Positions 1 to 4,958 of a stretch of DNA of 4,958 nt are shown piece by piece (the stretch's first letter is position 1; each line of letters opens with the position of its first letter). A program made the position numbers and the translations under genes. Where the stretch lies: the IMG/VR virus record IMGVR_UViG_2695420644_000001. One strand, given 5' to 3'. The notes beneath the pieces are model-generated. The model was not told where the DNA came from, ran no database searches, and worked only from the letters and a program-made list of their open reading frames with translations. The stretch comes from a virus. Its lineage: Duplodnaviria; Heunggongvirae; Uroviricota; Caudoviricetes.

Positions 1-211
1 GGGCGGTTGCCCGGCATCCAACACCATTCATGGCCATATCAATGATTTTCTGGTGTGTACCGGGTTGAGAAGCGGTGTAAGTGAACTGCAGTTGCCATGT
101 TTTACGGCAGTGAGAGCAGAGATAGCGCTGATGTCCGGCAGTACTTTTACCGTTACGCACCACGCCTTCAGTAGCTGAGCAGGAGGGACAACTGATGGAG
201 ATGGAAGCCAC
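1..211 (-). CDS. insA: IS1 InsA, N-terminal about 70 codons; 3' end cut by window edge
   Basis: GTG start at 211 (minus strand). Translation [70 protein letters not shown] matches InsA with a few substitutions. The track ORF 28-240 is a different frame. Confidence 0.85.
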
Positions 212-243
212 GGGAGCACCTCAAAAACACCATGATACACTAA

Positions 244-266
244 ATCAGTAAGTTGGCACCATTACC
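244..266 (-). repeat. IS1 terminal inverted repeat (about 23 bp)
   Basis: Reverse complement of 244-266 is ggtaatggtgccaacttactgat, against canonical IS1 ggtgatgctgccaacttactgat. Confidence 0.8.
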
Positions 267-268
267 AG

Positions 269-445
269 GATGCGGAGCATGGTGAGGCTGGTCACTTCAC
301 TTCCATCGAGCAAGAATATCCCCAGATACTCAACAGAGCGCGAGCAATCCTCGCCCGAGAAACGGCACATGTAAAACTTCAGCCGTGGCAGGATGATAAG
401 TGGAGTCGAGTATTGCCGCATTTACCTCAGAATCTGTTTCAATAA
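269..445 (+). pseudogene. Possible 3' remnant (58 codons) of an unidentified gene truncated by the IS1 insertion
   Basis: Frame is open from the IS1 boundary to TAA at 443-445 (…NRARAILARETAHVKLQPWQDDKWSRVLPHLPQNLFQ), followed 19 bp later by a hairpin. No start codon context and no family recognised. Confidence 0.25.
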
Positions 446-619: not shown

Positions 620-1402
620 ATGGACAATATTAATAAACACGGGCTCTCAAGAAGAATACCTGAGACAATAAAACGTCAGATAAGGCAAAGGTGCGGCTTT
701 GGCTGTGTAATTTGTGGATTTGGATTTTATGATTATGAGCATTTTAAACCTGACTTCGTTGATGCCAAAATACATGATCCGAATGGAATGACACTTCTTT
801 GCTCCCAATGCAATCAAAAAAGAGCTCGTGGTAGACTTTCAGCACAGACAGTGGAAATAGCTGACAGAAATCCCAAGTGCTTACAGGCTGGTTTTGCAAA
901 TGAAATGTTTGATTTTCATAATGAGCCTATAACAGTAAAATTTGCAGGAGTGACGTTTCATAACTGTCAAAATTTGATTGTAGTCAACGAACAACCCATT
1001 CTTTCTGTGAAACCTTCACCCATACCACATGGACCGATGCTTTTATCAGGAATTTTCTGTAATTCTATTGGTAAGGAGACTTTACTGATAGATGAAAATG
1101 AATGGAAAGCTAAATCAGACAATTGGGATGTGGAGTGTACCGGCCCGCGTATAACAATACGACGTGGGCCAGGAGAGTTTGCCCTCGTTCTAAAAATGGA
1201 ACCTCCAACAGGATTGATTGTTGAGCGTCTTGATATGTTGTATGAAGGGGTCAGGATGAAAGGAGATAAAGATCTGCTGGAAGTTTCGATTAATGGAGGT
1301 CCCTTGCACAGATGGCAATCATGCTCAATGTCAAATTGCCATACAGGGCTTGCGATTCAGGGCGGTATTAGAGCTGCTAATGATCCTTTGTATTGCGCCT
1401 AA
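620..1402 (+). CDS. Hypothetical protein with N-terminal HNH (beta-beta-alpha-metal) nuclease motif; C-terminal ~190 aa unrecognised
   Basis: 260-aa ORF. Residues 25-67 read C-x3-C-x2-C … EH-x2-P … DPNG … LLCSQCNQK, fitting the HNH pattern of CxxC, catalytic His, Asn, CxxC-N. By rough count about 40% GC against over 50% in flanking genes. No Shine-Dalgarno. Confidence 0.7.
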   Translation: MDNINKHGLSRRIPETIKRQIRQRCGFGCVICGFGFYDYEHFKPDFVDAKIHDPNGMTLLCSQCNQKRARGRLSAQTVEIADRNPKCLQAGFANEMFDFHNEPITVKFAGVTFHNCQNLIVVNEQPILSVKPSPIPHGPMLLSGIFCNSIGKETLLIDENEWKAKSDNWDVECTGPRITIRRGPGEFALVLKMEPPTGLIVERLDMLYEGVRMKGDKDLLEVSINGGPLHRWQSCSMSNCHTGLAIQGGIRAANDPLYCA

Positions 1403-1496: not shown

Positions 1497-1598
1497 ATGC
1501 GCACATACAATCCAACCTCTCTTCTCCATTCACAGATGCAGAAATGCACCTGCGATATTTTGCATCCAGCGTTTGATCTCTGCGGAGGTGAAGCGTGA
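1497..1598 (+). CDS. Small ORF (33 aa, Cys-rich) coupled to ybcN; possibly ylcH-like
   Basis: ATG at 1497 with gggga 6-10 nt upstream. Stop TGA at 1596-1598 overlaps the ybcN GTG (GTGA). Translation [33 protein letters not shown]. Identity rests on position, not on recognised sequence. Confidence 0.45.
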
Positions 1599-2050
1599 AC
1601 CTCCCACAAGATGGTATCAAATTGCATCGCGGTAACTTCACCGCTATCGGTCGGCAGATCCAGCCTTATCTGGAGGACGGCAAATGCTTTCGCATGGTGC
1701 TTAAACCGTGGCGCGAGAGACGCAGTCTTTCCCAGAATGCACTCAGCCACATGTGGTACAGCGAAATCAGTGAATACCTCATCAGCAAGGGTAAAACGTT
1801 CGCTACTCCAGCTTGGGTAAAAGATGCTCTCAAACACACATATCTCGGTTATGAAACCAAAGACCTGGTTGATGTCGTAACCGGTGATATCACCACTATC
1901 CAGTCGTTACGCCATACCTCCGATCTTGATACCGGAGAGATGTATGTCTTCCTGTGTAAGGTTGAAGCCTGGGCGATGAATATTGGTTGCCACCTGACTA
2001 TTCCACAGAGCTGCGAGTTTCAGCTGCTGCGCGACAAGCAGGAGGCGTAA
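1595..2050 (+). CDS. ybcN: NinB/Orf-family recombination protein (YbcN-like)
   Basis: 151 aa, GTG start with GGAGG 6 nt upstream. Motif [15 protein letters not shown] resembles the lambda NinB core; position is directly upstream of ninE-ybcO-rusA. Confidence 0.88.
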
Positions 2051-2220
2051 TGGCTACACCGCTTATTCGTGTCATGAACGGACACATCTACAGAGTACCA
2101 AATCGTCGTAAGCGTAAACCTGAGCTGAAGCCATCCGAAATACCAACACTGCTCGGATATACCGCCAGCTTGGTTGATAAAAAATGGTTGCGACTGGCAG
2201 CAAGGAGGAGTCATGGCTGA
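2050..2220 (+). CDS. ninE: NinE-family small protein (56 aa)
   Basis: ATG at 2050 overlaps the ybcN stop (TAATG), GGAGG upstream. Basic KR-rich protein with …GYTASLVDKKWLRL… resembling lambda NinE. The track ORF 1987-2220 is an N-terminal over-extension. Confidence 0.82.
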   Translation: MATPLIRVMNGHIYRVPNRRKRKPELKPSEIPTLLGYTASLVDKKWLRLAARRSHG

Positions 2221-2503
2221 TTTGAGAAAAGCAGCGCGTGGTCGGGAATGCCAGGTAAGAATCCCTGGCGTATGTAATGGCAACCCTGAAACGTCTGTAC
2301 TGGCACATATCCGGCTGGCTGGATTGTGCGGTACCGGTATCAAACCGCCAGACCTGATTGCCACCATTGCATGTTCTGCCTGCCACGACGAAATCGACCG
2401 CCGCACACATTTTGTCGATGCTGCATATGCAAAAGAATGCGCGCTGGAAGGTATGGCGAGAACACAGGTTATCTGGCTGAAAGAGGGGGTTATTAAGGCG
2501 TGA
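2213..2503 (+). CDS. ybcO: YbcO-family (DUF1364) Cys/His-rich putative nuclease, 96 aa
   Basis: ATG at 2213 with AGGAGG 3-10 nt upstream. Translation [34 protein letters not shown]…[11 protein letters not shown]… The track ORF 2174-2503 is over-extended. Confidence 0.88.
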
Positions 2504-2862
2504 ATACCTACAGCATCACATTACCCTGGCCTCCGAGCAATAATCGCTATTACCGCCATAATCGCGGGCGCACGCACATCAGCGCAGAGGGGCAGGCATA
2601 CCGCGATAACGTCGCCCGAATCATTAAAAACGCAATGCTGGATATCGGCCTGGCTATGCCTGTGAAAATCCGCATTGAGTGCCACATGCCGGATCGCCGT
2701 CGCCGTGACCTGGATAATCTGCAAAAAGCCGCTTTTGACGCACTCACTAAAGCAGGTTTCTGGCTGGATGATGCTCAGGTCGTTGATTACCGCGTTGTGA
2801 AGATGCCTGTTACCAAAGGTGGGAGGCTGGAACTGACCATCACCGAAATGGGGAATGAATGA
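2500..2862 (+). CDS. rusA: Holliday junction resolvase RusA (120 aa)
   Basis: GTG at 2500 overlaps the ybcO stop (GTGA). Translation [25 protein letters not shown]…[10 protein letters not shown] matches RusA essentially full length. Confidence 0.95.
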
Positions 2863-2957
2863 TGTTTGAGTTTTATATGGCAGAACTTCTTCGCCACCGC
2901 TGGGGGCATCTGCGCTTATATCGTTTCCCCGGTTCTGTTTTGACCGATTACCGAATC
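2859..2957 (+). CDS. ylcG: ylcG-like small ORF, first 33 codons only; truncated at junction
   Basis: ATGATG at 2859 overlaps the rusA stop (ATGA). [33 protein letters not shown], after which the sequence becomes antisense rlpA. Confidence 0.55.
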
Positions 2958-2958
2958 C

Positions 2959-3024
2959 ATCATCGCTTGTACATGCCGCGAGCATTCCTGCCGCGATGCA
3001 GATCCCGAGCCACTGCTTACGCAT
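2959..3024 (-). CDS. rlpA: rlpA, first 22 codons only (lipoprotein signal peptide with lipobox LAAC); truncated at junction
   Basis: Minus-strand ATG at 3024 with GAGG Shine-Dalgarno, 10 bp after the rodA stop. MRKQWLGICIAAGMLAACTSDD matches the RlpA N-terminus and the known order mrdB-rlpA. Boundary uncertain by about 3 nt. Confidence 0.8.
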
Positions 3025-3034
3025 TGCGCACCTC

Positions 3035-4030
3035 TTACACGCTTTTCGACAACATTTTCCTGTGGGTGTGGATTGACATTACAATCCCGAACCCAGCCAT
3101 CAGCACAATTAGCGCCGATCCTCCATAACTGACCAGTGGGAGCGGAACCCCTACAACCGGCAGAATACCGCTTACCATACCAATATTTACGAAGACATAA
3201 ACGAATAATATCAGCATTAAGCCGCCAGCCATGACGCGACCAAAGGTGGTTTGCGCTCTGGCGGCTATCCACAGCCCGCGCATGATCAGCAGAATGTAGA
3301 GAGCGAGCAGAATCAGAATGCCCACTAATCCCAGCTCTTCCGCCAGTACCGCGAAGATAAAGTCAGTATGGCGTTCGGGGAGAAATTCAAGCTGTGACTG
3401 AGTGCCGTGCAGCCAGCCTTTGCCGCGTAATCCGCCGGAGCCAATAGCAATTTTAGACTGAATAATGTGATAGCCCGCGCCGAGTGGGTCTGATTCCGGG
3501 TCCAGGAGCATCATTACGCGCTGGCGCTGGTAATCATGCATCAGGAAGAACCACAGAATCGGAATGAACGCCGCTACCAGCACTACTGCGACGCCAATCA
3601 GACGCCAGCTAAGGCCAGAGAGGAACAGTACAAACAGACCGGAAAGCGCAACGAGGATTGATGTTCCCAGGTCAGGCTGTGCAGCCACCAGCAGCGTGGG
3701 CATAAATATCAGCACCAGCGCGATGCCAGTGTTCTTCAACGATGGCGGGCAAACGTCGCGGTTGATAAAGCGCGCAACCATCAGTGGTACGGCTATTTTG
3801 GCAATTTCCGACGGCTGAAAACGAACAATACCGAGGTCCAGCCAGCGTTGAGCACCTTTAGAGATGGCACCGAAAGCATCTACCGCCACCAGCAAAATAA
3901 TACAGATGATATAGAGATAGGGGGCCCAGCCTTCATAAACGCGTGGAGGAATTTGCGCCATCACCACCATGATGACCAGACCCATCGCGATTTGGCCGAT
4001 TTTACGCTCCATCATGCCAATATCCTGACC
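3035..4030 (-). CDS. mrdB: RodA (MrdB) SEDS-family peptidoglycan polymerase, residues about 40-370; 5' end missing
   Basis: Translation from [23 protein letters not shown]… to …[14 protein letters not shown] matches E. coli RodA to its C-terminus; stop at 3035-3037. The 83 residues upstream in the track ORF (3035-4279) are antisense proS. Confidence 0.93.
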
Positions 4031-4958
4031 GATGTGGTCTTCTCCGACACCTCTGACTATGCAGCGAACATTGAACTGGCAGAAGCTATCGCGCCGAAAG
4101 AACCGCGCGCTGCTGCTACCCAGGAAATGACGCTGGTTGATACGCCGAACGCGAAAACCATCGCGGAACTGGTTGAACAGTTCAATCTGCCGATTGAGAA
4201 AACGGTTAAGACTCTGCTGGTTAAAGCGGTTGAAGGCAGCAGCTTCCCGCTGGTTGCGCTGCTGGTGCGCGGTGATCACGAGCTGAACGAAGTTAAAGCA
4301 GAAAAACTGCCGCAGGTTGCAAGCCCGCTGACTTTCGCGACTGAAGAAGAAATTCGTGCCGTGGTTAAAGCCGGTCCGGGTTCACTGGGTCCGGTAAACA
4401 TGCCGATTCCGGTGGTGATTGACCGTACCGTTGCGGCGATGAGTGATTTCGCTGCTGGTGCTAACATCGATGGTAAACACTACTTCGGTATCAACTGGGA
4501 TCGCGATGTCGCTACCCCGGAAATTGCTGATATCCGCAACGTGGTGGCGGGCGATCCAAGCCCGGATGGTCAGGGTACGCTGCTGATCAAACGTGGTATC
4601 GAAGTTGGTCACATCTTCCAGCTGGGTACCAAGTACTCCGAAGCACTGAAAGCCTCCGTACAGGGTGAAGATGGCCGTAACCAAATCCTGACGATGGGTT
4701 GCTACGGTATCGGGGTAACGCGTGTAGTAGCTGCGGCGATTGAGCAGAACTACGACGAACGCGGCATCGTATGGCCTGACGCGATCGCACCGTTCCAGGT
4801 GGCGATTCTGCCGATGAACATGCACAAATCCTTCCGCGTACAGGAGCTTGCTGAGAAACTGTACAGCGAACTGCGTGCACAAGGTATCGAAGTGCTGCTG
4901 GATGACCGAAAAGAACGTCCGGGCGTGATGTTTGCCGATATGGAACTGATCGGTATTC
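4031..4958 (+). CDS. proS: Prolyl-tRNA synthetase ProS, internal fragment (about residues 214-522, includes editing domain); truncated at junction and window end
   Basis: Plus-strand translation [42 protein letters not shown]…[17 protein letters not shown]…[21 protein letters not shown] matches E. coli ProS. Confidence 0.93.

Follow-up and report, generated by a model that had tools for sequence, protein, structure and literature searches.

Gene content and block structure of the window

The window, that is, the whole 4,958-nt stretch of DNA analysed here, was compared by BLASTN and base by base with three regions of E. coli K-12 MG1655 (proS, mrdB/rlpA and the DLP12 prophage). This comparison resolved it into four colinear blocks (1-265, 266-2956, 2957-4031 on the minus strand and 4030-4958 on the plus strand), with the following features:

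1-265, minus strand: left end of a divergent IS1 (IS1 family transposase annotated under the matches; terminus read directly)
266-445, plus strand: 3' remnant of a gene encoding a P22AR C-terminal domain (antirepressor-like), cut by IS1 (comparison with EC291)
620-1402, plus strand: Cys-rich prophage ORF of 260 aa (ORF list; CxxC motifs near the N-terminus)
1595-2050, plus strand: ybcN, lambdoid nin region (K-12 annotation)
2050-2220, plus strand: ninE, lambdoid nin region (K-12 annotation)
2213-2503, plus strand: ybcO, lambdoid nin region (Pfam YbcO)
2500-2862, plus strand: rusA, lambdoid nin region (Pfam RusA)
2859-2956, plus strand: first 98 nt of ylcG, which has 141 nt in K-12 (K-12 comparison)
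2956/2957, no strand: junction A, ylcG nt 98 joined to rlpA nt 68 (base-by-base comparison)
2957-3024, minus strand: first 68 nt of rlpA, encoding the lipoprotein signal peptide (K-12 comparison)
3035-4030, minus strand: rodA (mrdB) codons 40-370 and the stop codon (K-12 comparison, translation, Pfam)
3035-4279, minus strand: accidental ORF of 414 aa, with a GTG start at 4279 and 83 antisense proS codons in frame with RodA 40-370
4030/4031, no strand: junction B, rodA head-to-head with proS (base-by-base comparison)
4031-4958, plus strand: proS codons 220-528, running off the window edge (K-12 comparison, translation, Pfam)

The window thus contains two abrupt joins, ylcG::rlpA at 2956/2957 (junction A) and rodA/proS at 4030/4031 (junction B), separated by 1,074 bp. 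On the K-12 map, the path along the window breaks off at about 573.8 kb, resumes at 665.1 kb, continues to 666.2 kb and is then read backwards at 218.1 kb. Positions 2957-4958 were fully explained by two colinear parental loci (BLASTN and base-by-base comparison), with no linker or filler bases, and the joins cut four genes (ylcG, rlpA, rodA and proS), each at an arbitrary codon position. The window was of finished quality, with 99.9-100% identity to natural alleles, which excludes a raw, noisy long read as its origin. No Rfam match to a structured RNA was obtained in the window.

The IS1 end and the lambdoid prophage

The terminal inverted repeat of IS1 ends in CATTACC at position 265, and the start of insA reads leftwards out of the window. 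This 265-nt piece was 93.6% identical to an IS1 copy of strain EC291. Position 266 corresponds to position 3001 of locus L018, within an EC291 CDS (2857-3180), a P22AR-type antirepressor gene. The insertion site at 265/266 was found in none of 5,426 complete E. coli genomes and is private to the window. Unlike junctions A and B, this boundary coincides exactly with the IS1 terminus; it therefore looks like the product of an ordinary, genuine transposition into the prophage antirepressor-like gene.

The remainder of the prophage block (266-2956) aligned in one piece, with 99.9% identity, to the lambdoid prophages found in AW1.7 and other strains, and its distal part (1413-2956) was 97.3% identical to K-12 DLP12, covering ylcH, ybcN, ninE, ybcO, rusA and the start of ylcG. 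YbcN gave a NinB Pfam match below the gathering cut-off (21.0 versus 23.8 bits). The 260-aa Cys-rich ORF had no Pfam match; its exact sequence was present on 985 contigs, mostly under the name “hypothetical protein”, with one UniRef entry named “HNH endonuclease”. Downstream of this ORF, a hairpin with a perfect 12-bp stem and a 9-nt loop (1443-1475) looks like a terminator. The homology to prophages ended at position 2956 in the 30 E. coli genomes listed and in 13 of the 15 phage records listed.

Junction A and the rlpA-rodA island

At junction A, the two parental sequences had no overlap and no bases were inserted. The minus-strand block that begins here (2957-4031) was 100% identical to the K-12 rlpA'-mrdB region, with 3035-4031 corresponding to mrdB; the BLASTN match of this block reached position 4034 with 99.9% identity, the single mismatch lying at 4032. 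The original prediction had delimited the rodA-derived block at 3035 and 4030. The boundary at 4030 was retained and the lower limit had to be revised, as the block passes the rodA stop codon (3035), a 10-nt spacer and the start of rlpA before ending at 2957. Thus, rlpA'-rodA' forms a complete island of 1,075 bp, joined bluntly on each side to neighbours derived from unrelated loci.

The RodA fragment matched PF01098 (FTSW_RODA_SPOVE; E = 6e-127) over profile positions 32-355 of 356. It lacks the native start and residues 1-39, and profile positions 1-31 are missing. Translation placed the breakpoint exactly at the Gly40 codon (4028-4030), where rodA homology had already been said to stop.

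Junction B and the proS fragment

Identity to rodA extends through position 4031 and identity to proS begins at position 4030, such that the dinucleotide CG is common to both parents, with no inserted bases. The truncated 5' ends of the two genes therefore abut in a head-to-head arrangement. The rodA and proS parts of the window matched separate K-12 loci in BLASTN searches, meeting at 4030/4031; these loci are 448 kb apart in K-12, consistent with the earlier description of the two genes as distant.

The proS piece (4030-4958) was 98.2% identical to K-12 proS, which lies on the opposite strand. It matched PF04073, PF00587 and PF03129 and encodes the editing domain together with the end of the class II core (only profile positions 124-179 were matched) and the beginning of the anticodon-binding domain. 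The plus strand does read proS from 4031, as had been proposed; the first residue, given previously as about Asp214, is Asp220 in the translation. The start codon and residues 1-219, including the N-terminal part of the catalytic core, are absent from the window, and translation and Pfam analysis thus bore out the view that neither rodA nor proS starts here.

This proS allele differs from that of K-12 by Q293L, V384I and R402T. It is uncommon, with identity values of at least 99% in only 108 of 5,424 complete genomes, and the piece was 100% identical in at least 60 natural genomes; many of the listed genomes with the identical allele originated from pigs or poultry.

Sequence features at the joins

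No IS terminal inverted repeat was found at junction A or B, both sides being colinear with ylcG, rlpA, rodA and proS up to the join. The sole IS end in the window, at position 265, is 2.7 kb away from junction A and 3.8 kb away from junction B. No direct or inverted repeat was detected at either join beyond short similarities at chance level. For the rodA/proS boundary, the base comparison and the repeat search therefore agree with the original prediction that no IS end or repeat is present. A general repeat search also revealed no site-specific scar, with no extra bases between the parents and no inverted repeat centred on the joins. The microhomology, 2 nt for junction B and none for junction A, is not distinguishable from chance overlap: for random blunt joins, we calculated a probability of about 0.56 for no overlap and of about 0.16 for an overlap of two or more nucleotides. 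As the parents share only 0 and 2 nt, homologous recombination, IS-mediated rearrangement and a repeat-collapsing assembler are not supported.

Several specific origins were also rejected. IS1 promotes adjacent rearrangements, and an IS1 copy is present in the window (1-265), a point in common with IS1-mediated deletions or inversions, but neither junction adjoins an IS end, and the nearest lies 2.7 kb away. A restriction-site or proximity-ligation origin was rejected: the four parental ends (AAT/ACT, TGA/CCA, CCG/CTG and AGA/CGA) had no common motif by eye and there was no GATC-type duplication. Engineered scars or adapters were rejected on the absence of unaccounted bases between parental blocks. 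Junction A resembles the joint of a specialised transducing phage, in that lambdoid prophage DNA is joined to host DNA without homology. However, about 91-153 kb separate rlpA from the prophage in K-12 and EC291, more than the lambdoid head capacity of roughly 50 kb, and the host piece of 1,075 bp is followed by a third, unlinked locus; aberrant prophage excision was rejected on account of this distance and the third piece.

A 25-nt direct similarity (18/25 positions, 72%) was observed between 2939-2963, across junction A, and 3991-4015, in rodA, 15 nt to the left of junction B. The window contains 12 such pairs, a chance-level number, and the probability, estimated post hoc, that one of them connects the neighbourhoods of both joins is about 0.5%. 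This similarity is not predicted by purely random ligation and is probably a coincidence.

Distribution of the joins and of the parental pieces

Junction B was found in none of the 5,426 complete E. coli genomes, the two halves of positions 3900-4160 matching separately in every genome; junction A was likewise absent from these genomes, none of which covered more than 60% of the window. Exact-string scans for junctions A and B yielded no match in species-representative genomes, IMG/VR viral contigs or JGI metagenome contigs. No listed alignment to PLSDB plasmids or INPHARED phages crossed either join, most of them stopping at 2956/2957 or 4030-4034.

We also considered whether the pieces came from one genome or several. 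Strain EC291 carries all three, with identity values of 98.96% for the prophage block, 99.8% for the rodA block and 100% for proS, each within an intact gene and in its native context. In strain 2452, identity was 99.6% for the rodA block and 100% for proS, both again in intact genes at their native loci. No complete genome gave a 100% match to all three pieces, so the collection does not include the source strain. The presence of all three in EC291, at 99.0-100%, does not support an origin of the pieces from different strains, and the data are compatible with a single phylogroup-A-like E. coli source genome, in which these genes are normally whole and far apart.

Origin of the joins

Two homology-free joins 1.1 kb apart, four broken genes and an arrangement seen nowhere else are best explained by the concatenation of random fragments, and we consider it likely that the window consists of three random E. 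coli fragments placed end to end outside normal biology. The joins are blunt, the fragments unaltered, the loci unlinked and the junctions unique to one sequence. We infer that the pieces were joined in vitro or in silico rather than in a cell; the sequence does contain the rodA/proS junction, but this most likely represents a chimera rather than a biological feature. The original prediction had favoured a chimeric, concatenated or merodiploid origin over native organisation, and the absence of the joins from all collections, the lack of a recombination substrate and the second blunt join all point the same way.

Fragment 1 (1-2956) would correspond to lambdoid prophage DNA interrupted by IS1, fragment 2 (2957-4030/31) to the complete 1,075-bp rlpA'-rodA' piece and fragment 3 (4030/31-4958) to an internal piece of proS. 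As for the mechanism, sheared DNA fragments would most likely have undergone blunt co-ligation while the library was being built, the product then persisting as a chimeric clone, polished long read or small leftover contig; concatenation in silico would fit equally well. With a MinION ligation kit, at least 1.7% of reads had chimeric elements joining separately prepared amplicons (PMC5600009). Like the window, ligation chimeras display blunt joins of unrelated loci from one genome, with no homology and no inserted bases, arbitrary intragenic breakpoints, kilobase-sized fragments and junctions unique to one sequence. The window differs from them in that its joins carry no adapter or barcode remnant and its sequence is polished.

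E. coli has no prolyl-tRNA synthetase gene other than proS, which is essential, and rodA is required for rod-shaped, normal growth. A single viable chromosome therefore cannot hold these joins as its only copies of the two genes. A genuine complex rearrangement, chromosomal or extrachromosomal, would thus imply a merodiploid cell with intact copies of rodA and proS elsewhere, in which the joins would have arisen when double-strand breaks were sealed by end-joining, either without homology or at microhomologies (alternative end-joining, A-EJ, LigA-dependent), or by template switching, the rlpA'-rodA' fragment of 1.07 kb being trapped between the lambdoid prophage and proS. We regard this as improbable, although end-joining could yield overlaps of 0 and 2 nt, all the pieces may derive from one source genome, and the geometry relative to K-12 would be that of a deletion at junction A (573.8 to 665.1 kb) and a simple inversion at junction B (218.1 kb with 666.2 kb). 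The similarity between the two junction regions might also hint at template switching, but the window holds 12 pairs of this kind, as many as expected by chance. This scenario requires two separate illegitimate joins no more than 1.1 kb apart, which would disrupt rodA and the essential proS, and the arrangement was present in none of the complete genomes and in no other collection searched. According to the summary of Chayot et al. (2010) in PMC4872102, LigA-dependent A-EJ in E. coli joins DNA at micro-homologies and gives rise to large deletions (up to 40 kb). A-EJ or illegitimate recombination resembles the window in joining distant chromosomal sites with little or no microhomology, but A-EJ is rare in E. 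coli and makes use of micro-homologies, whereas the overlap at junction A is zero; the two joins only 1.1 kb apart and the destruction of an essential gene are further differences. A still less probable form of this scenario is that, in a living E. coli cell, breaks in ylcG and proS were sealed by homology-independent end-joining or template switching with capture of the 1,075-bp rlpA'-rodA' piece as filler, the region being duplicated or carried on an extra replicon. If true, this would constitute natural filler-DNA capture in a bacterium without Ku/LigD; joins proved to be present in the cell would be of modest interest as an E. coli example of end-joining that needs no homology and captures a fragment.

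Even less credible is a misjoin by the assembler at a sequence common to two loci (de Bruijn or overlap collapse at a repeat). Chimeric contigs are a frequent assembly artefact and the window starts inside IS1, a typical site of assembly breaks. Such a misjoin nevertheless requires a common k-mer or overlap, and only 0 nt (junction A) and 2 nt (junction B) are shared, with no repeat nearby; repeat-driven misassembly was accordingly rejected, there being no sequence common to the joined ends.

Open reading frames at the joins and consequences for annotation

A gene caller would probably report the 414-aa ORF across junction B as a long “RodA”. This antisense-proS::RodA ORF and the two other ORFs spanning a join, an 89-aa YlcG fusion and a 167-aa RlpA fusion, were not found by exact look-up in a collection of 15 billion proteins. 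The same collection contained a 326-aa “RodA” starting at Met45, with names from Shigella sonnei and E. coli M056. The 24 longest of its 134 index blocks were read and 10 contexts listed (L004-L013): in all 10, the ORF lay in the native mrdA-mrdB-rlpA locus, downstream of mrdA, and in nine it was preceded by a 44-aa ORF. At the one locus examined (L004, 2870-3981), deletion of 1 nt split rodA (GCGCCCTGG to GCG-CCTGG). The 326-aa form was therefore rejected as a natural short RodA or as a source of the window, and the truncation of rodA in the window, to which a naturally short homologue would have been an objection, stands. The split rodA (44-aa and 326-aa ORFs) of public assemblies could reflect either a true pseudogene or a sequencing error that recurs.

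A native functional organisation, with a naturally short RodA or ProS or a functional 414-aa fusion, can be dismissed as next to impossible: the ORF is uninterrupted across the junction and 326-aa “RodA” entries exist, but these entries belong to the native locus, frameshifted in L004, the N-terminal 83 residues of the 414-aa product are antisense proS, and RodA and ProS lack profile positions 1-31 and the first 219 residues, respectively.

Given concatenation as the preferred reading, the window should be flagged as chimeric, and the truncated rodA, proS, rlpA and ylcG genes and the 414-aa ORF should not be recorded as pseudogenes or fusion genes. The window provides no evidence that rodA or proS is dispensable, and its main value lies in quality control. 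Among database records, several PLSDB “plasmid” entries carry chromosomal mrdB/rlpA or proS, for example NZ_CP110860.1 (113 kb) and NZ_OL790696.1 (4.8 Mb), and some of these entries, of megabase size, look like mislabelled chromosomes or chromosomal contigs.
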